64,000 nucleotides of DNA from a virus (lineage: Duplodnaviria > Heunggongvirae > Uroviricota > Caudoviricetes): the IMG/VR virus record IMGVR_UViG_3300042564_004805, positions 64,001-128,000 of that record; one strand, 5' to 3'. The translations under genes were made by a program, and so were the position numbers. Shown piece after piece: positions 2,907 to 51,572 of the stretch (position 1 is the stretch's first letter; each line of letters opens with the position of its first letter). The notes below the pieces were generated by a model. The model did not search any database. It was not told the DNA's origin and saw only the letters and a program-made list of their open reading frames with translations.

Positions 2907-4022
2907 TTATTTAACCGAGGGAAATTTGCCATTGCTTTGAGTTTGAGGAGGAACTCCTCCTGCTGTGACTTTGTTGAGAAATTTCCGGGCTTGTTTTTGA
3001 ACAGCATCAGGTCCCACATCGGTGGTAGTGTTCACACCTTTAACTATCTTGCCCACACCAGCTGTTTCGCCAAGACTGGGTTTGAGAATCAAGTAGCCAT
3101 CTGTTCCTGGCGAGAGAGAGTAGGGAAAACTCTCTTGCTTGGTTACCCAAGTCCAACCCAGATGTCTTGCTAATTTTGGTGCCATACTCTTATAACGCTT
3201 TTTCCTGCTCGGGGCCCAAGCCTGGAACCAAAGTCCATTTACAGGTAAGGTTTTTTGATGATCAATAGCATACTTGAGAAGTTGAAACACAGCACTGAAG
3301 ACTTTAAAGGCTGAACCTGTGCCACTTATGTCCATGCCATACTCTGTGTGCCTAAATTCCACCTCGTAAATACCCCTCTTCTGAGGCTCTTGCAATCGAG
3401 ACATTCGAAGCTCGTATTCGTTGCCATCAATTTCAAACAAAAAATCAATATAGCTGTCGCCTTCTGTTTTTATCTTCCATTTATCCCGGGGAAGTTGGTA
3501 ATCAAAAGCCTCTTGCAATTTTGGTTGAACTATTGCACTGGGCTTATATACAACAAAGTCACTTGTGTCAAAATCAAAATATACTTTGGCACCAGCTCTC
3601 TGCGCCAACATTTGACCCAATGCGCTATAGAGCTTGTTCCTGCTGCCGCGTCCACCAATAAAAGTCAAGTAGTCCCATTCATGAGATCCAAGCCAACCAA
3701 AGAGGCGTCGCACCAATTCTTTCCACAAGGGTATGGCCTTAAGGCCCATTGTGCCAGTTTGTTCTATTTCCCCATCCACTGTCCATAACCAAACATAGCC
3801 CTTGGCTTGTGGATTGGGCTCTAAATCACTGGCAGCCAATGCATCCTGTAAGTCTTTTTGATTTTTATCTTGAGTAAGTCTTTGTTCGACTAAATGGTCA
3901 TCATACTCAAAGCTTGTAATATATCTTGAAACTGAGCCCACATTGTCTTGTTGCCATTTGGTTGTCAATGGCTGATAAGCTTCTAGCAACTTCTTTAAGG
4001 GCACTAAATGGTAAATTCTCAT
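2907..4022 (-). CDS. Modular putative internal head protein (two SRxxxY-type domains plus a C-terminal ETAGVG module)
   Basis: 371-aa ORF; modules delimited by LLE, LQE and LGE; the domains resemble those in the 969-aa neighbour. Confidence 0.6.
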   Translation of the reverse strand: MRIYHLVPLKKLLEAYQPLTTKWQQDNVGSVSRYITSFEYDDHLVEQRLTQDKNQKDLQDALAASDLEPNPQAKGYVWLWTVDGEIEQTGTMGLKAIPLWKELVRRLFGWLGSHEWDYLTFIGGRGSRNKLYSALGQMLAQRAGAKVYFDFDTSDFVVYKPSAIVQPKLQEAFDYQLPRDKWKIKTEGDSYIDFLFEIDGNEYELRMSRLQEPQKRGIYEVEFRHTEYGMDISGTGSAFKVFSAVFQLLKYAIDHQKTLPVNGLWFQAWAPSRKKRYKSMAPKLARHLGWTWVTKQESFPYSLSPGTDGYLILKPSLGETAGVGKIVKGVNTTTDVGPDAVQKQARKFLNKVTAGGVPPQTQSNGKFPSVK

Positions 4023-6928
4023 ACTTTTATAAGGTTTCCTTTGAGATCTGTGATAGTAATCCTATCAATACTTACAGGTGTTACCTGACAATTGGGCAGC
4101 AAATTATCTCTATCTGAAGGCTGCATGGTATCTACTGGCATATATGCTCGTGCAGTTTTATCCTCAGGTGTTATTTCCCAACTTAAGATGTATTTGCCAA
4201 ACCAATCATGCTCACCAACATCAAAAAATATAGCAATAACTGGAGTGAAAGGATATTCCACAGTGCTATATCGGCCAAATTCTCTAGCACCAGTCTCATC
4301 ATATTTTGGTTTCAGTCCGCCTGACTTTATTATACTTGTAAGCTTATTGGTCATATGGTATACTCGCTGGCCCACAATACTTTTGCCTGGATATAAATTA
4401 TATTGGGAATATTGCATGCCAGGCTCATACCAAATATTTGCTCCAGGACGCAAACCTTTGTAACTTAAACTTTCGTCCAAGTTAGTGAATGATGCAAGCT
4501 TGTCCTGCTTGACAATTGCAAAGCTTTTGTTAGTGTGCAACACTGTGCTATCAGCAGGTGCCAACTGTTTTGCCAGCCGGAGATAGAGCTTGTTGCGGCT
4601 GCGCTCATCCCCACTGAAGTTGATGTAGTCCCAGCTGTGGGTCTGGAAAAACCATTTGAGTTTTCGTATAATCAAATCAAATAATTGGGCACTTTTTTGG
4701 TCAAACATACCTGTTACAGAGATGCTGTGATCTACAGAGAAGGACACTTCATATCCAACCCAGTTTTCTGGCACTTGCTTTTGCAAGATAGTTTGAAGCT
4801 CATAAGAAGCGTCTTTTACGACTGCTATTTGCACTTCACTGCCAGCAAATTCAAATTCAGTGTAGTGGGTTGAACCGCCCTTTATTGATTGCCAATCTCC
4901 AGGAAGTGGCTTGCCTTTAAAAACTTCATCCAGCTCTTGAGATTTTGCTGCCAACAAATGGTTTTTGATCAGCAGGAACCAATCTCCAAATTGCATTGGC
5001 TCTGAATCAAGTCCTGGAGATATCTGACTCAATATTTTAGTATATACTCTTTGTCTACTGTCCCCAGCACCTGCGAAGACCAAATAGTCCCATTCTATAT
5101 TTTGTAGTAGTCCTATGATTTTTCCTACAACAATTGAAATTACATTCGCTGCACCTGTGCCTAGTAAGCCTGTTGGATCAGTTTCGCCATCTACCCTGAA
5201 TATTATTTCTCTGCCAACCAGGTTTGCTCCAGCCTCTATGTTTTTCTTCATCAACACATAGGCACCAGATTGGGCCCAATCCCGACTCACACTTATTGTG
5301 ATCTTATATCCTTGAAGATCAAACTCTGTTTCAAACATTTCTGCGTCGCCGCTTCCATATTTTTTCCAATCGCCTGGAATATGCTCACCACTTATGATTT
5401 CATCAACTCTAGTTGCTCCGCCGCAATGTTTGTTTTGAAACCAGTTGGCTTGGCGTTTGTCTAGAGTTGTAGCACCCTGGCGTGTTTTGAGTTTTTGTGT
5501 TTTGTCACATGTGACACCTCCGCCATACAGTCTGGTGATTTTGGATTTGAGAGTGCCAGGCGCACCTTTGCGCTCTGTTAACAATGTATCAACAGGCATT
5601 TTCTCCCAATGCAGCCATGCTGATGGTGCAACTTGGTTGTGCACACCAGGATCGTATTCTACAACCTTTCCTCGGTATATCTCCCTTATTTGATTCGCTG
5701 GTATAGAGCCTTTGACTCCCACTTCATGTGATCCTGTGCCTTGCACATGCACAATTTTTGATTCATCAGGTTTGGGCACTGCAATTACCCATGCTGGATT
5801 GTCCCAGTTGGCTTTTTGATTCCATGGTGCAAAACTATGAGCATAAGTTTCAGCTGACCTGGGTTCAGTTGAAAAATAGGTTAAGCCCTGTTGCCCAGCC
5901 AAGTTATACTCGCCTTTGCTTTGTATCACTCCTGTTTTTTTGATATTTTGAAATTCATGATTACTCATGCCCCTATACACTAGGTTGGGATTTGGAGTTA
6001 TGTTTAAATTGGCACGCAAATGAGATTTGGGAACAAGCTGATCTTTTACGGCGATGACTTTGCCATCATCGTCTTCAAGTGGGTCACTTTTGATGTCAAA
6101 ATAATTGGGATCATATTCGCCCAATCTACCTCTCCAGGTTACACGGTATGTGTCTCTTTTGTTTTCATTTTCTTCTGAGAGACTTTTTTGAGTCTTTAAC
6201 AGCAGTTCAAAAAACGGGCCAGATACACTAGTGTTTGCTCTCTGTGGTACAAGACGCAGGTTGAGTGCTTCAATCCATTCAGGTTTGATGTGCCTAGCAC
6301 GCAATCCACCGACAAAAAACAAATGAGTTTCAACAGGTGCATCGCCTTCAGTTTCTAGGACCGCATACATTCTGTTGCGGCCTTCGTGCCCAATTACTCT
6401 TGCGGATTTATTATAACGACCTTTTTCCCATTCTATTGGTATGTCTAAGACCAGCCAAGGACTGGCCATTCCCTGCCCTTGATCTAGTTGCTGTTTGATA
6501 TAATCCACACTCCCAGCATGTTCTCTTGACAAAGGGCTAGCCAATTTCAAAAATACACTGGGCTTCATCGCGACTCTCAAGCCAAGATAATCCACATTCT
6601 TATTGTCAGGCACTTCCCCAATGCCACTCACATTGTCGATTTTTACTTCATTTAGCAGGGCAAACAGCTCTATCAGAAGAGCTTCTTGAGCAGGCTTTTT
6701 CTCAAGTTTGCTCAATTTCTTGTAATAGTTAAGATCCTCACCCAAGTGATCCAAGGCTATTTCTCGCGCCACACTCCGCAACCGGGTGTGTTCCATCTCC
6801 ACTTTGATGCCCTGTGCCAGCTGTTTCTCCACAGAGTCTGTTGACACTTTGTATTTTTTAGCCAGCTCAGCTACGCTACTGGTAGGCTTGTTCAATAGGT
6901 CATTCAGTTTCATTAGGATCTTCTTCAA
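4019..6928 (-). CDS. 969-aa multi-domain polyprotein: DUF5661-like, ParB/Srx-like, R-S-E ADP-ribosyltransferase-like, basic peptide, two WDY..SRxxxY domains, H-x-T ART-like
   Basis: Motifs GIKVEMEH..EIALDHL.E..NYY.KL, GHEGRNR, VYRG..YFST..HEV and VYHMT..I.KSGGLKP. Junctions at LNE, LSE, LTE, VDE, LDE and LDE. Confidence 0.7.
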   Translation of the reverse strand: MKKILMKLNDLLNKPTSSVAELAKKYKVSTDSVEKQLAQGIKVEMEHTRLRSVAREIALDHLGEDLNYYKKLSKLEKKPAQEALLIELFALLNEVKIDNVSGIGEVPDNKNVDYLGLRVAMKPSVFLKLASPLSREHAGSVDYIKQQLDQGQGMASPWLVLDIPIEWEKGRYNKSARVIGHEGRNRMYAVLETEGDAPVETHLFFVGGLRARHIKPEWIEALNLRLVPQRANTSVSGPFFELLLKTQKSLSEENENKRDTYRVTWRGRLGEYDPNYFDIKSDPLEDDDGKVIAVKDQLVPKSHLRANLNITPNPNLVYRGMSNHEFQNIKKTGVIQSKGEYNLAGQQGLTYFSTEPRSAETYAHSFAPWNQKANWDNPAWVIAVPKPDESKIVHVQGTGSHEVGVKGSIPANQIREIYRGKVVEYDPGVHNQVAPSAWLHWEKMPVDTLLTERKGAPGTLKSKITRLYGGGVTCDKTQKLKTRQGATTLDKRQANWFQNKHCGGATRVDEIISGEHIPGDWKKYGSGDAEMFETEFDLQGYKITISVSRDWAQSGAYVLMKKNIEAGANLVGREIIFRVDGETDPTGLLGTGAANVISIVVGKIIGLLQNIEWDYLVFAGAGDSRQRVYTKILSQISPGLDSEPMQFGDWFLLIKNHLLAAKSQELDEVFKGKPLPGDWQSIKGGSTHYTEFEFAGSEVQIAVVKDASYELQTILQKQVPENWVGYEVSFSVDHSISVTGMFDQKSAQLFDLIIRKLKWFFQTHSWDYINFSGDERSRNKLYLRLAKQLAPADSTVLHTNKSFAIVKQDKLASFTNLDESLSYKGLRPGANIWYEPGMQYSQYNLYPGKSIVGQRVYHMTNKLTSIIKSGGLKPKYDETGAREFGRYSTVEYPFTPVIAIFFDVGEHDWFGKYILSWEITPEDKTARAYMPVDTMQPSDRDNLLPNCQVTPVSIDRITITDLKGNLIKV

Positions 6929-9900
6929 GGTTGCGGATTTTTTTCACCGTTGTAGTAGGCTTTCCCCAAGGTTCCGGCCAGCGTTGCGTAAATTTCAGCC
7001 TCACATTGGCTGCAGGAATTGGCTTGTAGATGACCCATGCATCGTAATCGTGCTGAATATCCAATGCTGGATCAGGAGTTAGATCATTGGGATCTTGAAC
7101 CTTGATTTCCCATATATCCATACTCTCGCCCTCATCTTGACTCCAATAGTAAGCCCAATCTTCAGCTTGTTCAAAAGTTTCAAACAGAAACACACCTGGT
7201 TGTCGCAATATATGATCATGTTCCTTTGTTTTGGGAACAAGTCCTCTCTGGCGTATGCTCAAACGGTTTCTTGTTCTTGTGACATGATAGAGTTTAGTGG
7301 GCAGTGGCTCATCTCCCTGCCCGAGCCACGGGGCAGCTTCTGAGACCTGGTCTTTGTTTAAATCTAGTAACATCACAGGATACCCAGTTGAACTGCGAGC
7401 TATTTCTTTGAAGTCATAAGACTTATACCATTTCTCAAGTTGTGATTGTCTTTTGGGATCATCTGAGACAGCAGTGAGAATGACAGCATGAGCCTGGTTG
7501 TCTATTGCATCCCCAATACCAGCCTCTAAAATCCAGCTACCTACTCCAGACCCTTGATGATCTTCCTCGACCCATATGTTTTTGAACACAGCTATTGTTT
7601 TGTATCTGCGTTGCAATTTTTCTGCAAGGTCGGCGGGTGCATTTTCACTTGCAAGATAATTGACCAATTGTGGGGTAGATGTATCAGTTATGTAGGCTTC
7701 GAGACCTCCATGTTCCTCTTGTTGATCAATGCTTATGCTTTCATTTGTCTTGCTCTTGCCCCAGTTTTTTGCACCCTTTTTCCTGCACTGCACTAATGCA
7801 CCGCTGGCATAGGCACTGGGCCAAACTTTGTAGCGACTCTTGACTTTGTAGTAGCAGGCATCTTGTTTTTCACTGAGCATAGAGTAGTTAACCATTTGGC
7901 CTCCGCAATGTGGACAACTGGAGTTTTCTTTCAGCTCATGCTCTGTCAAAGCCAGTTGTATGTTTTTCACATCTTCTGTGCGTATGTGCACAAGATTGCT
8001 CATGCCCATGCTTCGACTGTTCCAATAGCCTTGGTTGTGGAGATGCATCATCATATAGTAGAGATATTCTGGCATCAGCTGTTCAGTAGCTGTGACTTTG
8101 ATTCCAATATGATAGGGACTGAATTCTTTGGCTGGTGTGCCCACATTTGTTCTATCACTGCGTCGCACAAGCCAAAAGTCAGCATCAGGAAAATTAGTTT
8201 TGATAGTGCAGAGATCTCCCAATTTTGTAGAGCCAACACTTTCTTTTGTGGCTACGTTCCGGGCCTTGCCTTCACGTTCAGGATTGGGATCTTCTCTACG
8301 CTTGCGCCTAGCAGCAGTTGCACGTTTTTTCTTGCCCAGTGCCCAAGCCTTCCGCTGTGGCAGGCATTTGGGCTTGCCTTCGCCTTCACTGCCTCTAGCA
8401 CAGTCGCCTCTGATCTTGCCATCTGTCCCAAATCGCACCCATTTTTGTTTGAACCAATCACGCAAGCTTTCATCCAAATATTGCGCTTCCCAATCCATGA
8501 AGTTTTCAGCAAATTTTTGGCACCGTTCTCGTATGTTTGTATCAGCAGTAACCATAATATTGAAAGTGCGTTGACTTTGGGATTGAGTTGTATCAGAGTA
8601 GCCGCAATAGACTTTTTTGACAGGACTCTTGTTGATTAGGTCAGTACAACTTTCACCATATCTTGGCATCTGCTCGCTGCATGGACTGCATGTGGTTACA
8701 ATTATACAGCCATCAGGTATGCTTCCGTATTTTTTACGATAAGCCCTCATAGCCAATCGTTCAGCATGATACCATTTGTCATTGGCAAATGTGCTGAAAC
8801 CTATTACAAGACGGTTGCGGGGATCCAACAACCCTGCGGCTACCCATCCGTATTTGTCAGGGTTTTTCTTTCGTCTGGTGTCAACTAGGTTACACAATGC
8901 AACTAAGATGCGATCCAGCTTTTTATAGTTGTGTATTTCTACGTTATTGTTTTCATTCAAGGGCTTGCTAGTTGTCTTTCCGCCCTTTTGTCGTTTGCGT
9001 CTAGCAGCACAGTGAGCACGTTGGCTGAACCCTTGAGGATTAGAGCAGTTGATACTCTTCTTATACTTTTTGGTCCATTTTTCCTCAACAACAGAGGGAT
9101 TGCCATTCTCTATACCACTAGATTCCCACTTGCGGAAAAGAGGATGGTCAACACTTTTGGGACTGTAGACTTCCATGCTGCGATAGGCATAGTCGTTGCC
9201 ACCCAAGTATTGCACATACCCTCTCAAAGCCCAAGCGCCCATGGCAGGTGCAGCACTGTGGTGAGTATAATGTTCGCTATCCGCAGCCACAACACTGCCA
9301 TCTTTGTAGATCACAAATCTGGCACTGTGATACTTGTTGTTGCGTGCCAACCTTTTCAAATCTTGAATTGTGGGATTTTTGTGAACCATACGCTGGTCTT
9401 CATCAGTCCAAGCTTCTTCCAACTTCTTTCCCATTTGGACTAAACTGGTGCCTGTAAATGGGTTGTTTGATCCTCTGTTCTCCACATCGTAACCCAGCTT
9501 GTGATAAAAGCCTTCGCTTTCCCATTTGGCCTCTACGACGCTCTTGGTGGCCCCTTTGTTCTTTGCGATAGTCAAGGCTTGTAACATCAACGCTTTGCCA
9601 GCACCAGGTTTGTTGTCATAACTGCCCAACCATTTCACATGCGCCACTTGATTTTCAATCACCACATGTATTGCAGTTACACTGAACACGCCTAGATCTG
9701 GGGTATAGTTATAGAGGAAAATGCTATTTTTTCCCAAGTTGGGATTGTCAAGTGCTCGTAAGTTATTTTTAACCACATAAGCAACAGCCTCTAAGGCTTT
9801 GAAATCCTTGTCAAGTTTTTCATACTTTGGTCCCGCAGCATCATAGCTGGCGTCGTTAATCTCTTCTTGCTCATATGTGATTGCACCCAATAAGTCTTCT

Positions 9901-10628
9901 AGATCTGCGCGATCCAGTTGATTAGCTGATTCCTCAAGAGGTAAGTTCCAATAACCAGTTCCTTGATCTTGAAATCCCATCTTCTCATAAAATTTGTGGC
10001 TGTTCCAGATGGGTTTCACAACAGCGAGTAAGGCACCTTGTTTCTGGCTTTGTGCTAACCCCTGCTCCAAAAGTTGCCTACCAGTGCCATTCAAACTACC
10101 TAACCAAGTGATTTTTGCTGTCTTGTTGTCGAGCAGTATGTGCAATGCACTTTGGCAACCTTCAGTGTAGAGCCAAATGCTGTTGTTACCTAGTTGTGGA
10201 TCGTTTTCAAAAAGCTTCTGTGATTCCAAAACGTGACTGATGGCACGCAAGGCTCGATAGGCTTTGCTTTGCGTTCCCAGTTGACTGCTTGCCGTCGTTA
10301 GCTGGCGAGAAATTTGTTCGTTGTAGGTTTGCATCAGTGTCCCACAAGAAGTGAGAACAGCTATAGTTGGTGATGTATGGGGTGTTGTAGAGCGAGAATC
10401 AAACACTATATCCTTGGCTGGATCTTTGTAGATAGAGGTTGTTATATATCCTGATTGCAGGATATTAGGCGCATTGTCTAGTATAGTGCTATGATAGAGT
10501 TCACTGGGATTATTTTTTGACTCTTCCGGCTTGTCATTCTTTGGGTCAGTGTCTTCCCACTGGCTGAACACACTGGGTTTTTGATTCTGTTGGTCCTCCT
10601 TGTTTTCCAAAATATCAACCAGCTTCAT
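6900..10628 (-). CDS. 1242-aa multi-domain polyprotein: three GNAT-like domains, Zn-dependent deaminase, HsdS TRD-like, H-x-T ART-like and several basic Cys peptides
   Basis: GNAT motifs (GTGRQLL..FYEKMGF; GAGKALM..FYHKLGY; QGSGVGSWIL..WYKSYDF), deaminase HAE..SPC..C, KLGDLCTIK..PEYLYY..I..EDVKNI, and LYHVT..SIRQRGLVP. Junctions are [LVT]-x-E. Confidence 0.75.
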   Translation of the reverse strand: MKLVDILENKEDQQNQKPSVFSQWEDTDPKNDKPEESKNNPSELYHSTILDNAPNILQSGYITTSIYKDPAKDIVFDSRSTTPHTSPTIAVLTSCGTLMQTYNEQISRQLTTASSQLGTQSKAYRALRAISHVLESQKLFENDPQLGNNSIWLYTEGCQSALHILLDNKTAKITWLGSLNGTGRQLLEQGLAQSQKQGALLAVVKPIWNSHKFYEKMGFQDQGTGYWNLPLEESANQLDRADLEDLLGAITYEQEEINDASYDAAGPKYEKLDKDFKALEAVAYVVKNNLRALDNPNLGKNSIFLYNYTPDLGVFSVTAIHVVIENQVAHVKWLGSYDNKPGAGKALMLQALTIAKNKGATKSVVEAKWESEGFYHKLGYDVENRGSNNPFTGTSLVQMGKKLEEAWTDEDQRMVHKNPTIQDLKRLARNNKYHSARFVIYKDGSVVAADSEHYTHHSAAPAMGAWALRGYVQYLGGNDYAYRSMEVYSPKSVDHPLFRKWESSGIENGNPSVVEEKWTKKYKKSINCSNPQGFSQRAHCAARRKRQKGGKTTSKPLNENNNVEIHNYKKLDRILVALCNLVDTRRKKNPDKYGWVAAGLLDPRNRLVIGFSTFANDKWYHAERLAMRAYRKKYGSIPDGCIIVTTCSPCSEQMPRYGESCTDLINKSPVKKVYCGYSDTTQSQSQRTFNIMVTADTNIRERCQKFAENFMDWEAQYLDESLRDWFKQKWVRFGTDGKIRGDCARGSEGEGKPKCLPQRKAWALGKKKRATAARRKRREDPNPEREGKARNVATKESVGSTKLGDLCTIKTNFPDADFWLVRRSDRTNVGTPAKEFSPYHIGIKVTATEQLMPEYLYYMMMHLHNQGYWNSRSMGMSNLVHIRTEDVKNIQLALTEHELKENSSCPHCGGQMVNYSMLSEKQDACYYKVKSRYKVWPSAYASGALVQCRKKGAKNWGKSKTNESISIDQQEEHGGLEAYITDTSTPQLVNYLASENAPADLAEKLQRRYKTIAVFKNIWVEEDHQGSGVGSWILEAGIGDAIDNQAHAVILTAVSDDPKRQSQLEKWYKSYDFKEIARSSTGYPVMLLDLNKDQVSEAAPWLGQGDEPLPTKLYHVTRTRNRLSIRQRGLVPKTKEHDHILRQPGVFLFETFEQAEDWAYYWSQDEGESMDIWEIKVQDPNDLTPDPALDIQHDYDAWVIYKPIPAANVRLKFTQRWPEPWGKPTTTVKKIRNLEEDPNETE

Positions 10629-11253
10629 TTACAGGCTCCACATGTGTCATATAGCTGTCATCTGTATAAAAGTCCACAGCGTTCTCCACACTGTAGACTG
10701 TCATGTCTATTTGATACCCAGGATTACTGGTTATAGGATTTTTCACCCAAGCATTGTCATGCCAAATGATTCTATTGTTGGGATAAAGATAATAGTTTCC
10801 TTCATCCATTTTGAACAAATGCGCGCATTTGTGTTCAGGCGTTTCACTGAAATTGGTGTCAGTAAAAGCAGAGTTTTCCCAACCCCAGTCTAAAGTCATA
10901 CAGTATTGTCCTTGACGACGTTCCCCAGTGTAAACCAACAACGTAGCCCTTAACCCCGCCATGCGTTGCCGGACCTGCACATCAATATAATGACTGAAAC
11001 AGTCCCAATAAACATGTTCTGCAAGTGGTCTTACTGGTGCATCATTACGCCAACAAAAAGCAGTTATGGGTCGACGTGTCCAGTTCACTCCATTTTCCAA
11101 AAATGCTTCAAATAAAGGCGTGCGTTTCTCCATACTTGCGACACTGTGTACATCACAGGGAGTGAACTCGCCGTGGCCTTTGGTGTGATTGTAAAGGTAT
11201 TGGTTACGTATTAGGCATGTTAAAACGGGGATATTATGATTCAAATATGGCAT
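10615..11253 (-). CDS. Conserved hypothetical phage protein
   Basis: Likely start MPYLNHNIP at 11253, just downstream of an ATAAATA box. The ORF-track start at 11358 would overlap the divergent sirtuin. Confidence 0.6.
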   Translation of the reverse strand: MPYLNHNIPVLTCLIRNQYLYNHTKGHGEFTPCDVHSVASMEKRTPLFEAFLENGVNWTRRPITAFCWRNDAPVRPLAEHVYWDCFSHYIDVQVRQRMAGLRATLLVYTGERRQGQYCMTLDWGWENSAFTDTNFSETPEHKCAHLFKMDEGNYYLYPNNRIIWHDNAWVKNPITSNPGYQIDMTVYSVENAVDFYTDDSYMTHVEPVNEAG

Positions 11254-11349
11254 AGTATATTTATTGTCTGGACAGTGAGCACAATACAAAGGCAGTAAAC
11301 ATGAGAATTGGATTGCAACCCTCCAGAAATTTGTTGCATAATCAAAATT

Positions 11350-12081
11350 ATGACCCAATTATTGATTTTTAGCGGCGCTGGTTTGAGTGCTGAAAGCGGC
11401 ATCCCCACATTTAGAGAAGATAGCGAAGGTTTATGGAGCCGTTATGATCCATTGGTTTACAGTAATTACGCCACTTGGCGACAAAACTTTCAAATTGTAA
11501 ATGAATTTCACAGCGACTTACGGGAAATGCTTCTGAAGTTTCAGCCAAACGCCGCCCACAAACAGGTGGCAGAATGGCAGAGAAAATACAGTGCAACAGT
11601 GATAACTCAAAATGCAGACCTCTTGCTAGAGGAGGCTGGTTGCATCCCTGTTGTGCATGTTCACGGACAGCTGGATGAAATGCAATGCGAAAACTGTGGC
11701 CATGTTTGGAATATTGGCTACACTCGATACAACATCTCCCTAGGTTGTCCCAATTGCCAAAGCCTGACTGATGTCAAGCCTGCGGTAGTGTTGTTTGGTG
11801 AACCAGCACCCAAATACCAATATCTCTACAACACACTGGACAGCCTTACAGACAAAAGCCTGTTCCTGTGTATTGGAACATCAGGCTCAGTTGTTCCTGT
11901 TGATAACTTCGCAAAAGTGTTGGATTGTCCTAGTGTAATCAACGTGTTAAATTTAAATCGGGACATTGACGGCTACTTGCCTCCGATAGTTCCTTCTCAC
12001 TGGACTCACTGCCTATTAGGGCCTGTAACTCAACAACTGCACAAAATAGACAAGATCTTACAAGAGCATTTTGGTTTCTAA
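11350..12081 (+). CDS. cobB: Sir2/CobB-family NAD-dependent protein deacylase
   Basis: GAGLSAESGIPTFR, PNAAH, TQNADLL..AG, HVHG, CxxC..CxxC, KPAVVLFGE and IGTSGSV; start taken at MTQLLIFSG. Confidence 0.92.
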   Translation: MTQLLIFSGAGLSAESGIPTFREDSEGLWSRYDPLVYSNYATWRQNFQIVNEFHSDLREMLLKFQPNAAHKQVAEWQRKYSATVITQNADLLLEEAGCIPVVHVHGQLDEMQCENCGHVWNIGYTRYNISLGCPNCQSLTDVKPAVVLFGEPAPKYQYLYNTLDSLTDKSLFLCIGTSGSVVPVDNFAKVLDCPSVINVLNLNRDIDGYLPPIVPSHWTHCLLGPVTQQLHKIDKILQEHFGF

Positions 12082-12114
12082 ATAACACAAACGTTTCAAG
12101 ATCTGGGAAACCAA

Positions 12115-12693
12115 ATGAAAATTCAAGACCTTACGCAACCTTTGAATGAAAGTGTAAATCAAGCCATTCAATGGCACCAGGATAACAAAGTTCCGCTAGT
12201 TGATAACATATTCCGTATTCACAGCCCAGCTTGGTTTGAGTTTTTTTGTGAGATGCGACGTCGTGTTTCTTGTGGAGATATACTCTTGGAACACGCTCTT
12301 GACCAGGACATGATTGAGAGTGATTTAGGCACGTTTGGTGTGTATGAAGGCAGAATGGTTCCGTTGGATTGTATTTTTGAAACTCCAGAAAGTCTTGATG
12401 AGGCTGAGTATCAAGGAAAAGCTGTTGAGCTTAACAAGCCCAAGAGAGGCGGTCCTAAAAAGTATTACGTCTACGTCAAGAATCCCAAAACAGGCAGGGT
12501 CAAAAAAATTGCCTTTGGTGATGTGTCAGGTTTGAGTGTTAAAATCCGCGATCCCAAACGACGCAAAGCGTTTGCTTCTCGTCACAACTGTGAACAAAAA
12601 ACAGACAAAATGAAGGCTGGATACTGGGCGTGTAGAGTTCCCCGCTATACTAAATCCTTGGGATTGAGTCCAATTAGTGCCAAATGGTGGTAA
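12115..12693 (+). CDS. Conserved T4-like myophage protein with a basic C-terminal module
   Basis: LDEAEYQGKAVELNKPKRGGPKKYYVYVKNPKTGRVKKIAFGD...RRKAFASRHNC...AGYWAC; LNE/LDE junctions as in the polyproteins; TAAATA box upstream. Confidence 0.65.
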   Translation: MKIQDLTQPLNESVNQAIQWHQDNKVPLVDNIFRIHSPAWFEFFCEMRRRVSCGDILLEHALDQDMIESDLGTFGVYEGRMVPLDCIFETPESLDEAEYQGKAVELNKPKRGGPKKYYVYVKNPKTGRVKKIAFGDVSGLSVKIRDPKRRKAFASRHNCEQKTDKMKAGYWACRVPRYTKSLGLSPISAKWW

Positions 12694-12956
12694 TGAATCC
12701 CTACAGTGACAAGAAACAAATTCAAGGTTTGGAAAGAACATTCTTTCAATCTGTAGATTCTCATGAGCTAGTGTGGCATCGAGATCACTGTCACAGACTT
12801 ATTACAGTGGTTGAGGGTAATGGTTGGCAACTTCAAATGGACAACTGCATGCCCTGCAATCTCAAGCCCGGCGATGTCGTGAGAATCCCCCGAGACACCT
12901 TCCATAGACTATTGAAGGGCTCAGGGGATTTGAAATTGTTGATAGTTGAAGATTAG
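12693..12956 (+). CDS. Small cupin-fold protein
   Basis: ELVWHRD..R.I.V.EG.GWQLQ.D..P..LKPGD...IP...FHRLLKG cupin pattern; start taken at MNPYSD. Confidence 0.65.
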   Translation: MNPYSDKKQIQGLERTFFQSVDSHELVWHRDHCHRLITVVEGNGWQLQMDNCMPCNLKPGDVVRIPRDTFHRLLKGSGDLKLLIVED

Positions 12957-12975
12957 GTACCAGTGGCCATTATAC

Positions 12976-13563
12976 TTACTTACCTTGAACCAGTGGGCTG
13001 ATAACAGAGTTTGGTGCCAACACTCGATAAACGCTTGACCTATTGATCTTAAGCCGCCTTGCGATCTCACTTGCACCAACCCCTTGGGATTTTAGTGACT
13101 GAATCTCAGCCAGCTGCCTGCGTGCTGTTGGCGCCCTGCCCTTGTAGCGCCGCTCTGCCTTTGCCTTGGCGATGCCCTCTCGCTGCCGCTCAAGCATCAT
13201 TTGACGCTCAAACTCTGCTACTGCGCCTAAAACAGTCAGCATCAACTTGGATATTGCATTTCGTGTGTCTAATTCCATGCCGTTCATGCTCTGCACTATT
13301 AGGCCAATTTCTCGCTTTTCCAAATCTTCTACAATTTTGAGAAGATCTGATGTACTTCGAGCCAACCGGTCTACTCGTGTAACCATAAACACATCTTTTT
13401 CACGAATATATGACATCGCTGCGGTGAGCTGCGGTCTACTTCCAACAGCACTGGTTTGTTCTGCGAAGATTTTTTCACACCCAGCCTGTTGCAATGCTGC
13501 AATTTGAGATTCTAGACTTGCGGATTGTTCATGTGTGCTAGTCCTTGCATAACCTATAAGCAT
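12976..13563 (-). CDS. Serine recombinase (resolvase/invertase family) with C-terminal HTH
   Basis: MLIGYARTST (catalytic Ser), VTRVDRLARS, VAEFERQMMLERQREGIAKAK and HTH GASEIARRLKINRSSVYRVL; AAGGA RBS before ATG 13563. Confidence 0.95.
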   Translation of the reverse strand: MLIGYARTSTHEQSASLESQIAALQQAGCEKIFAEQTSAVGSRPQLTAAMSYIREKDVFMVTRVDRLARSTSDLLKIVEDLEKREIGLIVQSMNGMELDTRNAISKLMLTVLGAVAEFERQMMLERQREGIAKAKAERRYKGRAPTARRQLAEIQSLKSQGVGASEIARRLKINRSSVYRVLAPNSVISPLVQGK

Positions 13564-13585
13564 TACTTTTTCCTTATAATATAAT

Positions 13586-13966
13586 TCAGCTATTGAGGTC
13601 AGGAGCTTCGCGTTCAAACTCCTTGATATTCCAAGCTTTCACCCCAAAATATTCCTGCAACAGCTTGAGCACAATATTGGAATCAAAGTCCTTACAAGAA
13701 AACACGTCTAGGTGAAGTGTCCAAGTGTGAGGTACAAAATGACATACAATAGCCGATGTAGTAATAAGTTGCACAGCACTGATACCAGCTTTAGTAACAT
13801 CGTGGTCTGCGAACCAATGAATCTCTGGTCGACCAAATGCAATCATATCAATATCGTTAACCAGTTGGTCAACCCATTTGGTTACAGTCTCTTTGTCGTT
13901 GATGGCTTCATTGCACCCTGCTGCATCGACGACCAAATGTTTGCCCCAGCTTGGTAGGTTTTTCAT
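13586..13966 (-). CDS. speH: S-adenosylmethionine decarboxylase proenzyme family (class 1b, SpeD/SpeH-like)
   Basis: WGKHLVVDAAGC, GISAVQLITTSAIVCH and HLDVFSCKDFD; AAAGGAG RBS. Confidence 0.85.
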   Translation of the reverse strand: MKNLPSWGKHLVVDAAGCNEAINDKETVTKWVDQLVNDIDMIAFGRPEIHWFADHDVTKAGISAVQLITTSAIVCHFVPHTWTLHLDVFSCKDFDSNIVLKLLQEYFGVKAWNIKEFEREAPDLNS

Positions 13967-14006
13967 CTCATATGTGCTCCTTGGTATAAAAGATGGTTTA
14001 AGTGGT

Positions 14007-14014
14007 TATTTATA
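14007..14014 (-). promoter_or_regulatory. T4-type late promoter TATAAATA upstream of the SAM decarboxylase gene
   Basis: Exact consensus 40 nt before ATG 13966. Confidence 0.65.
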
Positions 14015-15086
14015 GTGTTTGAGAATAGTCATATAATTCTCTAGCAGCTAAATTCTTTTCCTTGGCTTCGCACATGAGATCCATCCTATCCCAAAACTCA
14101 AGACAGTAGCTGTTCAACGCCTTGTTCCAAGGTCGCTTGCTGTGGGCACGCAGCTTGCTTCGTTTGATACCACTTGACTCGAGCAACGCAATGTCTGGCC
14201 TGGTTGTGTTGCTGTGGGAGGGAAGTACATCTTCGTGCGGCCAAGCCACATGAATTTCTGGACGTGCACCACGCCAACTTTCAATCACCTGGGTCAGCCT
14301 TGGGTCATCTGGACTGAGATACGTTCCTTGATGAATCCAGTAGTGGTTGATGTCGAGACAGATCTTCACCTTGTCTTTCAAGGGCAAGAGATGATCGAGA
14401 CCGTAACTGTACTCATCATTCTCCACACTCAGCCATTGCTTTGTGTCACTGCTCAGCCGAGCAAAGCTGTGTTGAAAGTAATCAAGGAAATCGTCTCGAC
14501 GGGCACCACCATGGATGTTGATCTCCTGTCGCTGATCACTTCCATCAAAGCCCATGAGCCGGAAAATCTCCGAGTGGTACTCGAGGTCTTCAATAGCACG
14601 CTCCACCACCTCGGGCTCATGACTCACAAGCATAGTGAACTGTCCAGGATGCGTGCTGAGTCGAATGTCGAAGTCACGTGCTAGTTTGCCTACCTCCCCA
14701 AATCCGCGCAGTGCTTCAATCATCACAGATTCTTGATAGGCAGAGCTCCAATTGGCGTGTGTGCGAGCAGGGAGAATCTCACTGCCAATTCGCATCATTC
14801 GGAGTTCTTGTGGCCAACTGCCTACAAGCTGAAACTGCCTCATAAGTACCTCAGTGTTGTAGCGCACAATGCCACACAGCTTGTCAATGGCTTGTGTACG
14901 TGTGAGCTTTTCCAGTGAGGTTACAGTTGTGCCTTTTGTGTTGTAGAGGCTGTGCCACTCTGCTGCGCTCTTCTTGTCTTTGAACTCTGTTTCAGATACA
15001 AATTTACAGCAAAAACCAATTCGCTTGTCAGTCACCAGAGTCTCCTGTGTTACACACTTTTTTAACATAGTTTGCTGTTGCGTCAA
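14010..15086 (-). CDS. uvsE: UV-damage endonuclease UvsE/UvdE
   Basis: IGFCCK, RIGSEILP..TH, RLSTHPGQF..L, INIHGG, LSVENDE, LDINHYW and AHS. Confidence 0.92.
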   Translation of the reverse strand: MTQQQTMLKKCVTQETLVTDKRIGFCCKFVSETEFKDKKSAAEWHSLYNTKGTTVTSLEKLTRTQAIDKLCGIVRYNTEVLMRQFQLVGSWPQELRMMRIGSEILPARTHANWSSAYQESVMIEALRGFGEVGKLARDFDIRLSTHPGQFTMLVSHEPEVVERAIEDLEYHSEIFRLMGFDGSDQRQEINIHGGARRDDFLDYFQHSFARLSSDTKQWLSVENDEYSYGLDHLLPLKDKVKICLDINHYWIHQGTYLSPDDPRLTQVIESWRGARPEIHVAWPHEDVLPSHSNTTRPDIALLESSGIKRSKLRAHSKRPWNKALNSYCLEFWDRMDLMCEAKEKNLAARELYDYSQTL

Positions 15087-15089
15087 AAC

Positions 15090-15431
15090 TTATTGCCAGG
15101 TCAACCGAAACTCAGTTACTGCCTCTTGGCTATAAAATAGAACATAGAGTGGGAAGCGTTTCAGTAGGTCCGGATAGCTTCCCGCGTCCTCTTTGATGTC
15201 TTCAATTACCTTGCTGTTCATGTGTATCAAGCTGAAGCCACTGTCTCGCCAACTGTTGGTCCAACCACCGGGCTCACCAGCTGAGAACACTACCCTGAAC
15301 CACGTGTAGGCATTGGCGGGCACTTCTTTGCCCCAGCTTTCTAGGCACCACCTGTAGATGGGCAGCACTTTTTCAAACTCATGCACCTTCTCCACAAAGA
15401 TGTCTTGCCAGCGAATCTCGTTTATAGCCAT
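15090..15431 (-). CDS. Small hypothetical protein (F..E..A..F.L.W C-terminal family)
   Basis: Ends YSQEAVTEFRLTWQ; coupled to its neighbours. Confidence 0.6.
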   Translation of the reverse strand: MAINEIRWQDIFVEKVHEFEKVLPIYRWCLESWGKEVPANAYTWFRVVFSAGEPGGWTNSWRDSGFSLIHMNSKVIEDIKEDAGSYPDLLKRFPLYVLFYSQEAVTEFRLTWQ

Positions 15432-15730
15432 GTGAGTTGAAACCTAGTCATGTCGCTTTTGTTGGCGAACCAAAACACCCAGTCGCCATTGTCGTGGAGA
15501 TCATCGTAAATGAAACACCAATCTCCTTCAAAGTAGTCCAACCAGCCCCACATTGCCTCCTGGATGATGTTGCCTGCTCTTTCTTCACAGAGCTCTTTTT
15601 CACACCAGGCCTGCATTTCTTGCAATTTGGCGCTGTTGAGGATATCCTGTTCAATACTCACACAGTAAGCAAACACATATTGCAAGAGGTCTTTGCGCTC
15701 GTAGCCATCAATACTTCTTTGGATTTTCAT
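15422..15730 (-). CDS. Small hypothetical protein (same C-terminal family)
   Basis: WCEKEL...FWFANKSDMTRFQLTWL. Confidence 0.6.
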   Translation of the reverse strand: MKIQRSIDGYERKDLLQYVFAYCVSIEQDILNSAKLQEMQAWCEKELCEERAGNIIQEAMWGWLDYFEGDWCFIYDDLHDNGDWVFWFANKSDMTRFQLTWL

Positions 15731-15731
15731 G

Positions 15732-16058
15732 CTACCCCCATACCAATGAGAATTTCACAGCATCATCTTCCGTGAGAAACCAAAACACATCACCGGTCCA
15801 AGTGTATCTGTCAGCGCCAATCACAGTGTTGCACCATTGATGTATCTCCTGCCACTTGCCAAAATGTTCTTTTGACGTGTAGACAAAAGGATACTCGGCG
15901 TCCTGAAGATCTTTGCCGTACACAATTCTGTCTTTAGGAAGCCGAGTCCATTTTGTTATATCAAACATGGGCGTCTCTGCTGAAAGATAGGGCCATATGG
16001 TAACTCGAATATCAATGTCAACTAGGAAAACCAATGTTTTTTTCCATGTTAGCCCCAC
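15732..16058 (-). CDS. Small hypothetical protein (same family)
   Basis: EIHQWCNTVIGADRYTWTGDVFWFLTEDDAVKFSLVWG; the start may lie further downstream at MFDITKW. Confidence 0.6.
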   Translation of the reverse strand: MGLTWKKTLVFLVDIDIRVTIWPYLSAETPMFDITKWTRLPKDRIVYGKDLQDAEYPFVYTSKEHFGKWQEIHQWCNTVIGADRYTWTGDVFWFLTEDDAVKFSLVWG

Positions 16059-16309
16059 ACAAGTGAGAATTTTACTGCATCATCTTCTGTGAGGAACCAA
16101 AACACATCACCAGTCCAGGTGTAGTTGTCTTGTCCCAAAACATTTTGGCACCATGCGTGAATCTCACTCCATTTATTACTCTGTGAATTTTGAACCAGAA
16201 CATACGGATAACCAGCAGCCAATAGATTATTGCTAGAGACTCTTTGGTTCGGAGGCAGTTTCCGCCACTTGCTGATGTCTGTCCCAATTGGTGCAAACCA
16301 GTCCCTCAC
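16049..16309 (-). CDS. Small hypothetical protein, recent paralogue of 15732-16058
   Basis: GTG at 16309 overlaps the upstream TGA; the last 24 aa are identical to those of the downstream gene. Confidence 0.6.
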   Translation of the reverse strand: MRDWFAPIGTDISKWRKLPPNQRVSSNNLLAAGYPYVLVQNSQSNKWSEIHAWCQNVLGQDNYTWTGDVFWFLTEDDAVKFSLVWG

Positions 16310-17457
16310 AGAAACCAATGTGGCACCACGCGGCTGGTGTCCTGCACAATCTCTCGGGCACTGTCTCGAATGATGAGCCCAGCTGGCTTGTCTCCCACCA
16401 CCCAACTGCCAATCACAGCATGATGGCCATCTTGCTGGAACAGTCGCGCCCGCTGTTGGTAGATCCGGTGCCCGTGATACTTGCCCGCAGTGCTCGCTAC
16501 CTCGCGTCCATTGCTCACAATACTGATGTTGGCACCCTCACGGCTGAGCATGGGCTTAGCCACGTAGTCGCTGCCACCAGCTTCTGTTGAGGTCCAGTAG
16601 GCAGGCAGAATGTTGGGGTGATCCGGGAACATCTCGTGGAGCACAGGCAGAATGCCTTTGTTGCTCAGTATGCACTTCCAGATGGGTTCAATGATGCCGC
16701 TGACATCATTCCTTGTGTGCTGGCCAAACTCATCCGAGAACATCCACTCCCACGGATACAGCTTGAACCAATACTTGATGGGGCGATCTTCCAGGTCCAC
16801 AAACTGATTGTTGAGCCAGCCAATGTCGCCTAGGTTGATGAAGCGTGCATCAAGGCCAGCCTGTGTGGCCAGGTCCTGAAGATACACACAAGTCTGCCGC
16901 TCTTCCTCATTGTCCCCAAAGCCAGCAAAGTAAAAGGGCTCACCCGGTGGCATGAGCACGCGAATCTCAGTAAATCGCTCCACGAGGCGCTCATGTAGGC
17001 TGTTGAACTGATCTGCGCCACGGCGCTCGTCCTGTAGCCAAAACCACTGCATCATAGCCGACTCAATCACCATAGTGGGCGTGTCAGCGTTGTATTCCAG
17101 CATCTTGGGCGGACCCTTGCCGTCATAGGCGAAGTCAAATCGCCCATAGAGTGATGGGTCGTTCCGTGCCCAACTCCACTGGATGTAGTCGTGATAGTCA
17201 GCTGGGATGCCCATGCGCGTCATCAGCTCACGGTCATTGAACACTCGGTCCACAGCATCGAGGCAGCGAGCATGCACCTCTTCGGTAGCAGCTTCCAGCT
17301 CATCAATCTCGGCACTGGTGAACTCGTAGGCCACAGTCTCGTCCCAGTAGGTGCCATCTCCACCAGTGCTGGGGTTGCCACTTGTGTGAAACGTGAAGCC
17401 CACTTCCTCGGCACGCTCGCGCCAGTTGGGACGGGCCTGCATTGTGTGACGTCGCAT
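16306..17457 (-). CDS. ygiC: Glutathionylspermidine synthase-like ATP-grasp ligase (YgiC/YjfC family)
   Basis: YWDE..AYEF, LYGRFDFAYDG.GPPKMLEYNADTPT, FNSLHERL, FKLYPWEWM, EPIWKCILSNKGILP, KPMLSREGANI and IGSWVVGD...G..IR; AGGAG 7 nt before ATG 17457. Confidence 0.93.
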   Translation of the reverse strand: MRRHTMQARPNWRERAEEVGFTFHTSGNPSTGGDGTYWDETVAYEFTSAEIDELEAATEEVHARCLDAVDRVFNDRELMTRMGIPADYHDYIQWSWARNDPSLYGRFDFAYDGKGPPKMLEYNADTPTMVIESAMMQWFWLQDERRGADQFNSLHERLVERFTEIRVLMPPGEPFYFAGFGDNEEERQTCVYLQDLATQAGLDARFINLGDIGWLNNQFVDLEDRPIKYWFKLYPWEWMFSDEFGQHTRNDVSGIIEPIWKCILSNKGILPVLHEMFPDHPNILPAYWTSTEAGGSDYVAKPMLSREGANISIVSNGREVASTAGKYHGHRIYQQRARLFQQDGHHAVIGSWVVGDKPAGLIIRDSAREIVQDTSRVVPHWFL

Positions 17458-17503
17458 ATGATGTCTCCTTCTGAGCCTTACTGTAGCAGAATTTTTGGGT
17501 TTG

Positions 17504-18220
17504 TCAACCGCCGCCCGAGCTGCCCATACCAGCACCACTACCACCAAATCCACCGCGGCTAGCACTGCTGGTGCTCACAGCACTTGAGCCACTAGAGGGG
17601 ACACTCGCGCGGCTTACAGAGGTGGGCATAGTCCGGGCCACTGTGCCTGCACTGCTTGCAGCCGGAGCACCTGGAGAGGCGGGCTTTACATTCCATCCAG
17701 CGCGGGCTGCGCCCTGGTTCATGCCACTGCCCAAGCGCCCGCTGTCATAACTCGAGCCGCCTCCGTAGTAGTTTCCTACCATAACTGGTGTAGTGGCCCC
17801 ACCGCCGCCGTGGTAACCACCAGCCATCACTCGACGATCTTCGCGCTCTCGGGCATTTGTAGGGCTGTTGTAGCCTTGAAAGTAAACCGGCCGAGTATCT
17901 GCTGTCATGCGTCCTGCCATGAAGCCAACCATGGCTGGTAGCCAAATGTTGCCCGAATTTCCCGGTCCAGTTACCGACGTGCAACGCTCGTGTCCACGAG
18001 CAATACAGCTTTGCTCGTCATTGTATTTCGGCGCTGTAGACACATGATCGCTCATGGCCTTGTACCAGCGATCATCACAATTTGTGCCTCCCATGCTCTT
18101 GCATTGGTCAGCACTCTCGTAGATGGGATCACCATCCTTGGGCTTGTCATCACAAGCTGTGAGGCTGATGGCGCTTACTGAGCCCAACAGCACTAGAGCA
18201 ATTTTTTGACTGTGTCGCAT
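17504..18220 (-). CDS. ygiB: DUF1190 (YgiB/YjfM-like) lipoprotein with Gly/Ser-rich tail
   Basis: Lipobox LTAC, Y.S.DQC...C...A...H..TAPKY....C, WLPAMVGFMAG and terminal SRGGFGGSG. Confidence 0.85.
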   Translation of the reverse strand: MRHSQKIALVLLGSVSAISLTACDDKPKDGDPIYESADQCKSMGGTNCDDRWYKAMSDHVSTAPKYNDEQSCIARGHERCTSVTGPGNSGNIWLPAMVGFMAGRMTADTRPVYFQGYNSPTNAREREDRRVMAGGYHGGGGATTPVMVGNYYGGGSSYDSGRLGSGMNQGAARAGWNVKPASPGAPAASSAGTVARTMPTSVSRASVPSSGSSAVSTSSASRGGFGGSGAGMGSSGGG

Positions 18221-18237
18221 GTGTGTCTCCTGCGAGG

Positions 18238-18265
18238 ACTATAGCAGGTTTAAGGAAAGTGTCAA
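18238..18265 (-). promoter_or_regulatory. Sigma70-type promoter TTGACA-N16-TATAGT for the DUF1190 gene
   Basis: Read directly; followed by GCAGGAG RBS and ATG at 18220. Confidence 0.7.
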
Positions 18266-18267
18266 GC

Positions 18268-18666
18268 TTAGTAGGTGAAGCAGGCTGCCTGTAGGATACC
18301 AACAGCCAGGCTGCTGGTACCCAACATGATTGCATCAGCCATGCAGCGGTCAACTGCAATACTGCGCTGTAGGTTGCCAAACACCCAGTTCATGATCTCC
18401 CACATTAGGAGTTGCATAGCCAGTGCCACAGCACACCAAATGACCTTGTCAAGCCAACCAGTGCTGTAGATGATCACAGAGGCCATAGCTACTGTCATGC
18501 CCAGCAGGGTGCCAGCAAAACTCAGTGCTGCGGCTGTGTTCCCTTCTCGGATGAGTTGGATCTCATCATAGGGCGTGATCCGGATGTAGATGTAGAGGCT
18601 GATGACAATCATCACAAGGCTGCTGCCAAAATACAGCAGGAAGTTGGGCAGGGTAGCTAGTAGCAT
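18268..18666 (-). CDS. yjfL: DUF350 (YjfL-like) inner-membrane protein
   Basis: IY.RITPYDE.QLIREGNTAAALSFAGTLLG; four hydrophobic segments; ends A...G..SLAVGIL.AAC. Confidence 0.88.
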   Translation of the reverse strand: MLLATLPNFLLYFGSSLVMIVISLYIYIRITPYDEIQLIREGNTAAALSFAGTLLGMTVAMASVIIYSTGWLDKVIWCAVALAMQLLMWEIMNWVFGNLQRSIAVDRCMADAIMLGTSSLAVGILQAACFTY

Positions 18667-18682
18667 CTCTGGGTTTCCTTTT

Positions 18683-37313: not shown

Positions 37314-37326
37314 GTTCTGTCTCCAT

Positions 37327-51242: not shown

Positions 51243-51572
51243 TCAACCCAAAATAGAGGGTTTGATACTTACAGTTGGTATGAAATCTTTTTTTGCTGTA
51301 ATTTTTGAGATATTGGACTGTTGAGGTGTATGAAAATCATCCTCTGGGTTTATCACAGTGGGATCTTCAGTTGTGGGCCCCACGCTGTCTTTTACAGTGT
51401 CAAGGTGTTGTTGGAGTGGTGGACTCCACTTGGCATCGCCCTCTTCACCATAACGCACTCCAGGATTTATCACATCACTGTCAGCTTGCGCTTTCAACAC
51501 ATCGCCCAAGGGGATGTTGATTGTAACAGGCACATTTACAGTAAATTCTCGAATAAATTCTTTAGCTCTCAT
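51243..51572 (-). CDS. Hypothetical putative head protein (MRAKEF-type start)
   Basis: MRAKEFIRE leader and WSPPLQQHL motif. Confidence 0.55.
   Translation of the reverse strand: MRAKEFIREFTVNVPVTINIPLGDVLKAQADSDVINPGVRYGEEGDAKWSPPLQQHLDTVKDSVGPTTEDPTVINPEDDFHTPQQSNISKITAKKDFIPTVSIKPSILG

Follow-up and report, generated by a model that had tools for sequence, protein, structure and literature searches.

Three tandem multi-module proteins of a T4-superfamily jumbo phage carry hydrophobic-x-Glu sites at their module joints and are candidate prohead-processed effector polyproteins

The stretch of DNA analysed here (the window) comprises 64,000 nucleotides, i.e., positions 64,001 to 128,000 of the IMG/VR viral contig IMGVR_UViG_3300042564_004805, which is 180,697 bp long and was assigned a completeness of 44% by CheckV. 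Within the window, three co-oriented genes were found on the minus strand, directly upstream of the DNA polymerase gene, whose products (P0001, P0002 and P0003) are chains of modules joined at sites of the form hydrophobic-x-Glu (h-x-E). The first-pass annotation had proposed three such open reading frames (ORFs), and both the frames and all h-x-E sites listed by it were recovered, the latter at exactly the residues it had given. The genes overlap, P0002 and P0003 by 4 nt and P0001 and P0002 by 14 nt, or by 29 nt when the TTG start of P0002 is used; the likely ATG start of P0002 (MKLNDLL) locates to 6913. AlphaFold2 (AF2) models of the polyproteins were made from fragment alignments of metagenomic homologues. 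The genes are:

6900..10628, minus strand: P0001 polyprotein, 1242 aa, about 11 modules
4019..6928, minus strand: P0002 polyprotein, 969 aa from TTG, about 7 modules
2907..4022, minus strand: P0003, 371 aa, with leader MRIYHLVPLKKLLE14, GNAT-fold repeats 3 and 4 and a 52-aa tail

The modules of P0001 are:

10605..10628, minus: residues 1-8, leader MKLVDILE, like a capsid-targeting sequence (CTS), ends I-L-E and matches the family consensus M-K-L-x-D-L-F-E
9930..10604, minus: 9-233, disordered acidic stretch, ADP-ribosyltransferase (ART)-like putative remnant at 41-62, and GNAT 1; ends PLEE233
9414..9929, minus: 234-405, GNAT 2, Pfam Acetyltransf_10 at 342-402; ends KLEE405
9081..9413, minus: 406-516, alpha/beta module, confident AF2 domain at 408-511; ends VVEE516
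8952..9080, minus: 517-559, small basic two-Cys module A (KWTKKYKKSINCS...); ends PLNE559
8469..8951, minus: 560-720, cytidine/dCMP-type zinc deaminase, PF00383 E=9.5e-10 at 586-676; ends YLDE720
8241..8468, minus: 721-796, basic Cys module B (SLRDWFKQKWVRFG...), phrog_23735; ends ATKE796
7941..8240, minus: 797-896, weak DUF6943 only, poorly modelled by AF2; ends ALTE896/ELKE901, with high-scoring segment pair (HSP) breakpoints at 900-905
7740..7940, minus: 897-963, CxxC knuckle and DUF5872-like basic module (KQDACYYKVKSRYKVWPSAYASG...), phrog_3477/38880, weak DUF5872; internal MLSE920, end KTNE963
7338..7739, minus: 964-1097, GNAT 3, Pfam Acetyltransf_7 E=9.8e-14; ends QVSE1097
6903..7337, minus: 1098-1242, Tpt1/KptA-like ART-fold module, weak Pfam PTS_2-RNA; NLEE1236 near the C-terminus

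Those of P0002 are:

6647..6928, minus: 1-94, leader MKLNDLL...SVAE21, DUF5661 (Pfam E=2.5e-11) and internal LIELFALLNE94; AF2 linker 76-93
6173..6646, minus: 95-252, motif GHEGRNRM, confident AF2 domain, linker 245-256; ends SLSE252
5573..6172, minus: 253-452, ART-fold module; ends LLTE452
5399..5572, minus: 453-510, small basic helical module (RKGAPGTLKSK...HC), AF2 linkers 451-458 and 504-508; ends RVDE510
4925..5398, minus: 511-668, GNAT-fold repeat 1 (DUF6934-like); ends ELDE668
4472..4924, minus: 669-819, GNAT-fold repeat 2, weak DUF6934, VIA 676-810, internal repeats; ends NLDE819
4022..4471, minus: 820-969, C-terminal module, predicted local distance difference test (pLDDT) score <50

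The module tally thus comprises three canonical GNATs, four GNAT-fold repeats, two ART-fold modules, one zinc deaminase and several basic Cys modules of 40-75 aa. The initial description of the proteins as strings of unrelated modules therefore stands as far as the chains are concerned, yet not for the lack of relatedness, as P0001 possesses three GNATs and the two GNAT-fold repeats of P0002 are paralogous to the two of P0003, which end at LQE171 and LGE319. Pfam identified the three GNATs, the zinc deaminase and weak Tpt1/KptA and DUF5872 matches in P0001, as well as DUF5661 and a weak DUF6934 match in P0002; single-segment Pfam searches gave nothing significant for modules A and B, P0001 406-516 and 797-901, and P0002 95-252, 453-668 and 820-969. 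GNAT 1 (Pfam FR47/GNAT at 187-230) was modelled confidently by AF2 as a domain, the score dipping at 234-236, and the edge of GNAT 2 is marked by an AF2 linker at 370-407 and HSP breakpoints at 402-407. Residues 1106-1219 of P0001 likewise form a confident AF2 domain, for which a Foldseek match to Tpt1 (8tg4) was obtained. As Foldseek with the whole P0002 model yielded no match at E<=0.001, VIA comparison was needed to place its ART and GNAT-like folds: P0002 313-450 was found to have the ART fold (Z=9.2 to Tpt1/KptA, about 7.5 to heat-labile enterotoxin A1 and cholera toxin A1) and GNAT-fold repeat 1 (518-657) reached Z=8.2 to the Elp3 KAT and about 7 to TacT/AtaT. When P0002 253-445 was searched with tblastn, a match annotated as 'large polyvalent protein' was found in Planktothrix phage Pag-Yong1. 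Polyvalent proteins, a class that the first-pass annotation did not mention, are chains with 2-15 unrelated conflict-type domains encoded by phages or conjugative elements, a number within which both P0001 and P0002 fall, and phage origin is documented by the T4-type DNA polymerase and tail-fibre genes of the contig.

Two assignments were not adopted. P0002 820-969 was not called ART because it has no BLAST similarity to the Tpt1-like module, and an HsdS-like reading of P0001 797-896 (as a target recognition domain), made in the first-pass annotation, could not be verified. Within the disordered N-terminal stretch of P0001, residues 41-62 (window 10495-10509 region; PSELYHSTILDNAPNILQSGYI) resemble strand 1 of the Tpt1-like module at the C-terminus (E=0.002 in a single comparison) and may be the remnant of a lost ART-fold module. 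The C-terminal tail of P0003 (residues 320-371, window 2910-3065) is conserved, reads GGVG-x-IVKGVNTT-x-DV-x-P...KQA-x-KF...PP and is the C-terminal end of nine related polyproteins; in every case the final h-x-E joint precedes it, and a role as a second signal or as an anchor is conceivable.

Counting of [LIVMT]-x-E sites gave 30 in P0001, 19 in P0002 and 7 in P0003, as compared to 20.6, 18.2 and 5.2 expected from composition. Because these totals are close to the prediction there is no global excess of such sites, and the signal is their placement. For this, linkers were set from the AF2 models alone as short stretches with pLDDT <50 between confident domains, a linker being counted as matched when an [LIVM]-x-E lies inside it or at most three residues away, the null being an equal number of sites placed at random. 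Six of the seven P0002 linkers (p=3e-4) and seven of the ten P0001 linkers (p=0.008) were matched, while 19 control motifs h-x-Z reached at maximum 2/7 and 4/10, respectively, and the conservative control h-x-Asp 0/7 and 1/10. Moreover, the fold limits set by VIA in P0002 (ART 313-450, GNAT-like 518-657 and 676-810) abut the sites at 452, 510, 668 and 819. Enrichment at independently defined boundaries, with sites in linkers and not inside folds, is what had been predicted at the outset. A per-site column-conservation test on the fragment alignments was confounded, as the fragments end at the joints, and was not used. In most of the approximately 25 listed junction sites P3 is L, V or I; ATKE and KTNE, which have Thr at this position, lie outside the T4 rule (L/I-x-E) invoked for the sites earlier.

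The near-expected site totals favour a reading in which the proteins act as intact multi-domain polyvalent proteins, packaged or not, and in which h-x-E is a favoured linker or helix-end signature or a footprint of module-shuffling recombination rather than a cleavage site. Precedent for this is given by N4 virion RNA polymerase, ArdC and TraC1, polyvalent proteins that are transferred uncut (PMC5512222), and some of the junction motifs lie within the conserved N-terminal edge of a module. To weigh this, the relatives of the proteins are informative: 152 large mosaic metagenomic proteins from two database searches, which have single modules in common with P0001-P0003. In all-against-all BLAST comparisons, at breakpoints with true homology loss, 25% of the HSP starts have an h-x-E at offset +2 and 16% of the HSP ends have one at offset 0 (2% expected for each), and the motif is present in 140 of 362 junction clusters vs 19% of random windows. 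In the distinct upstream contexts of four unrelated module families Glu occupies P1 in 79/79 (module A), 77/77 (module B), 52/52 (the P0001 897-963 module) and 36/41 cases, and P3 is L, V, M or I in about 95% of the contexts of these families, with L, V or I alone accounting for >90%. Such strictness at P1, together with the near absence of Asp, would be unexpected for a generic linker. Neither is there a DNA-level junction cassette which would make the motif a recombination site: in the window only chance-level short repeats were found, bar one 20-nt match (18/20 identical; 3977-3996 vs 9410-9429), which underlies KKLLE|A of the P0003 leader and KKLEE|A at P0001 405 and is the sole DNA-level likeness among the joints. 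As the same motif furthermore closes unrelated short N-terminal leaders resembling the T4 CTS, action of the intact chains is regarded as unlikely.

The leaders themselves were documented as follows. Among 115 distinct N-termini of the relatives, 72 have an h-x-E within the first 16 residues, as compared to 18% of the phage's own ORFs, and the tight consensus M-[KRN]-[LI]-x-D-[LI]-[FL]-E was found in 26/115 vs 3/219. The leader consensus of the relatives, M-K-L-x-D-L-F-E, resembles the T4 CTS, for which the first ten residues of IPIII, MKTYQEFIAE, are sufficient (PMC8442874), a 10-residue CTS being enough for packaging in T4 (PMC9026906). Short N-terminal leaders had been noted before for the three proteins and conform to this family-wide pattern: those of P0001 and P0003 (the latter starting leader-like with MRIYHLVPLKKLLE) comprise 8-14 residues and end in the junction motif. 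Leaders of about ten residues that end in L/I-x-E are found as MKLVDILE, MRIYHLVPLKKLLE, MKIQDLTQPLNE and MRAKEFIRE, and for P0002 there is only SVAE21. The last two of these four belong to separate ORFs of the window, for which the presence of the same sites had been claimed and was borne out:

12115..12693, plus strand: 192-aa ORF, leader MKIQDLTQPLNE; its basic module is preceded by the internal joint SLDE|AEYQGK
51243..51572, minus strand: 109-aa ORF starting MRAKEFIRE, CTS-like and the closest match of the window to the T4 CTS MKTYQEFIAE

The basic module of the 192-aa ORF follows INE|AEYQGK in a relative, the complete genome G005. Outside the window (genome 131289-132254, minus strand) a 321-aa ORF with the leader-like start MLIRELLSE was noticed, which is a further candidate for a capsid-addressed protein.

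Comparison of orthologues, a check named in the first-pass annotation, revealed that gain, loss and rearrangement of modules take place exactly at the sites. GNAT 3 is missing in relatives P0005 and P0006, which are 83-90% identical in the common modules, the break being exactly 964|1092, i.e., between KTNE|S and the joint preceding the Tpt1-like module. In some relatives both N-terminal GNATs are missing and the protein starts with MSSVNQLSE|AWTDE, in others the Tpt1-like module comes straight after the 406-516 module, and this 406-516 module is found in relatives directly after N-terminal leaders, e.g., MRLVDLFE. The ART module of P0002 (253-452) is missing in P0125, P0126 and P0129, and in P0129 P0003 is fused to a P0002-like protein, whereby a joint (...KLDE|S) stands in place of the P0003 leader. 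Identical modules occur either behind an N-terminal leader or behind the h-x-E of another module (MRLVDLFE|ARFQE, MKLIDLLNE|VKIDN, MKIRDLLTE|KWS), and some relatives start at the IELFALLNE point of P0002 (residues 86-94) with MKLIDLLNE or MRLIDLFE, so that this stretch of P0002 looks like a fossil leader. From the exchange of modules at the joints and the fusion in P0129 it follows that leaders, joints and even gene boundaries are apparently interchangeable.

A protease matching such sites is known from T4, in which gp21 cleaves after Glu in L/I-X-E and Asp at P1 blocks processing (PMC9026906), and Peptidase_S77 was reported for every jumbo phage of groups 1 and 2, including Atu_ph07 (Iyer et al. 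2021, PMC7824862). The complete, terminally redundant genome of relative G005 (518,643 bp), whose DNA polymerase is 62% identical, encodes an S77 (gp21-type) protease (L087 9490-10134, minus strand) with the portal, scaffold and major capsid protein genes around it, and possesses a homologous polyprotein cluster near the polymerase gene with the starts MKLNDLFE, MKLDDIFE, MKANEFINE and MQIQSLME. Two further relatives (G001 and G002), each having a module in common with the polyproteins, also encode S77. The known maturation site of T4 gp23 has the sequence FLTE|AEIGG. Immediately upstream of the conserved core, the G005 capsid protein carries ILFE|S, which aligns near the T4 LTE|A site without coinciding with it and is suggestive only as a maturation site. 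In Synechococcus phage S-RIM2, a T4-like cyanophage, a basic-module homologue was found inside the structural gene block, beside a small gene starting with MKSYKQFMSE; the loci concerned are SWTG_00073 and SWTG_00074. The G005 polyproteins (L085, G005:198000-217999, ORFs 5379-19534) moreover contain dozens of helical repeats of about 60 aa that end with G-[IV]-[DN]-W-P-E-L and between which enzyme modules and an HExxH module of the zincin type are interspersed.

The occurrence of this HExxH module in about 25 of the 152 relatives and in one G005 polyprotein might be taken to mean that the joints are cut by another protease, i.e., a zincin-like metallopeptidase (MPTase) module acting in trans or a host protease, in the cytoplasm or after injection, and release by embedded MPTase domains was indeed proposed by Iyer et al. 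(PMC5512222). The HExxH signature was found, though, neither in the three polyproteins nor in any ORF of the six-frame translation of the 180-kb contig, most relatives with the same joints are without the module, and post-Glu cleavage with a hydrophobic P3 is the rule of gp21 and not that of zincins (PMC9026906). As the CTS-like leaders would in addition stay unexplained, this possibility is considered quite improbable.

The explanation preferred here, to which a probability of about 0.6 is given, is that P0001-P0003 are polyvalent proteins which are addressed to the prohead by a CTS, cut there at exposed joints by a gp21-type protease into about 20 pieces and delivered together with the DNA. 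The leader would serve as the CTS through which the precursor enters the prohead's scaffolding core. There the gp21-type (Peptidase_S77) protease would remove the leader and cleave every exposed joint, so that separate enzymes and basic peptides, about 20 in all, would be set free within the head. Retained in the head, the pieces would exit together with the DNA and begin their action in the host ahead of any phage gene expression. They would likely acetylate, ADP-ribosylate or deaminate host or defence targets, and the basic Cys modules possibly bind DNA. Since the joint is generic, any module set between two joints would be delivered, which would explain the rapid shuffling of modules. A related possibility is that the proteins are addressed to and cut in the prohead, but are mainly scaffold or core and DNA-condensing material, which is degraded or retained rather than injected. 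In T4, numerous L/I-x-E sites are cleaved in the core proteins gp22, gp67 and gp68, which for the most part exit the head (PMC9026906, PMC5694885), and many of the modules described here are small, basic and Cys-containing. Set against this are enzyme folds which look intact and are of the kinds typical for host-modifying effectors (GNAT, ART fold, deaminase with its zinc motif), as well as the fast module turnover, which is more in keeping with conflict than with a structural role, and this possibility is deemed the least probable of the alternatives weighed.

Several observations weigh against processing in the prohead as the explanation. Profile searches of the 44%-complete contig with PF03420 and PF07068 revealed no S77 protease and, for the major capsid protein, a match below threshold, and head genes were not found on the contig; with over half of the genome absent, about 220 kb, these negatives are uninformative rather than contrary. 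The polyprotein genes adjoin the DNA polymerase, outside any head module, and the T4 late promoter TATAAATA occurs only twice in the window, which is chance level, with neither copy near these genes. The N-terminus of P0002 lacks an early Glu, its first site being SVAE21, two junctions have Thr at P3 (ATKE796 and KTNE963), and in one family of relatives Asp was found at P1. In part, the conserved h-x-E could be a property of the module families' own N-terminal edges, and the P0001 model is too poor at the deaminase and at 797-1100 for linkers to be defined there.

If the joints are real head-protease sites, the one-leader-one-protein mechanism of T4 would extend to whole effector chains, and the release step of polyvalent proteins, so far explained only by embedded peptidases, would gain a concrete and testable explanation. 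A sequence rule of leader plus joints would then predict virion cargo in uncultured phages and point to candidate early-acting anti-defence enzymes (GNATs, ART-fold enzymes, deaminase). More tentatively, and with the odds rather against it, leader and h-x-E joint might constitute a general 'cargo grammar' across T4-superfamily phages of aquatic and other habitats, in which the modules between joints are loaded into the capsid by one address peptide and freed by the head protease, giving an exchangeable, pre-made arsenal of dozens of injected enzymes, and in which the basic Cys modules might tether the pieces to DNA and so ensure their joint exit.

As regards the phage, its family-B DNA polymerase is nearest to those of Agrobacterium phage Atu_ph07, Sinorhizobium phage Phosso, the Rak2-like phages (GAP32, CBB) and Salicola phage SCTP-2 (39-47% identity), for which reason it is placed as an uncultured jumbo phage of the Atu_ph07/Rak2-like branch of the T4 superfamily; megablast of the polyprotein locus against phage records gave no match. 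A Sir2-family gene (window 11308-12081, plus strand; Pfam E=2.8e-37) is the divergent neighbour of the polyprotein operon, in which seven GNAT-fold modules and ART folds are encoded, and may be an NAD-linked partner or antagonist. Just beyond the locus, genes for a serine recombinase (Resolvase and HTH_7) and an S-adenosylmethionine decarboxylase follow (12976-13617 and 13586-13966, both minus strand), and a glutathionylspermidine-synthase-like gene (16306-17565) lies in a stretch of higher GC content (0.52-0.55). Six neighbouring ORFs of 439-458 aa at 35964-44748 (minus strand) may be a tandem array of paralogues, the one tested (43399-44748) matching RCC1-repeat PHROGs. At 52856-55225 (minus strand) the phage encodes a 789-aa ClpA/ClpB-like double AAA+ protein (phrog_4871, E=1e-249).

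Among known systems, polyproteins found in eukaryotic RNA viruses are similar by analogy only: there too one translation product has short consensus sites between functional units, but their protease resides inside the polyprotein and the purpose is gene expression and not virion cargo. Closer are the giant phages phiKZ, 201phi2-1 and SPN3US, whose packaged inner-body and ejection proteins are cut at several post-Glu sites by the gp21-related S80 protease (PMC5694885, PMC9026906). The P3 residue of these substrates is, however, small (S/A/G; A in SPN3US), whereas it is L/V/I here, their cuts mostly remove propeptides and do not separate unrelated enzymes, and the phages belong to another group (nucleus-forming, with multi-subunit RNA polymerases). 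With the polyvalent proteins (Iyer, Burroughs, Anand, de Souza, Aravind 2017, PMC5512222) P0001-P0003 have in common the phage-encoded chains that combine 2-15 unrelated domains with effector roles (ART, GNAT, deaminase-type, DNA-binding), the predicted delivery with the DNA, the extreme domain shuffling and, in relatives, the zincin MPTase module. In contrast to the peptidase hub domain of that class, which is found in about 36% of polyvalent proteins and is not obligatory, the three proteins are without a peptidase module, and the same work proposed release via embedded peptidase domains and described neither a junction motif nor a CTS-like leader (PMC5512222). The T4 internal proteins IPI, IPII, IPIII and Alt, finally, likewise possess a short N-terminal leader that ends in hydrophobic-x-Glu, an S77 (gp21-type) protease in the lineage, cargo of the ART fold (cf. 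Alt), hypervariable gene content and genes located outside the head block. The leader described here is, at 8-9 residues (M-K-L-x-D-L-F-E), shorter than the T4 CTS MKTYQEFIAE, and T4 cargo consists of single proteins losing only their leader (Alt also a C-terminal piece), whereas here up to 11 modules per chain are found with a site at each joint, so that one leader would serve many products. In full-text literature searches on polyvalent proteins or cyanophages together with prohead protease or capsid targeting, such an arrangement was not found. Polyvalent proteins and the processing of T4 internal proteins are each established already; what appears to be new is their combination.

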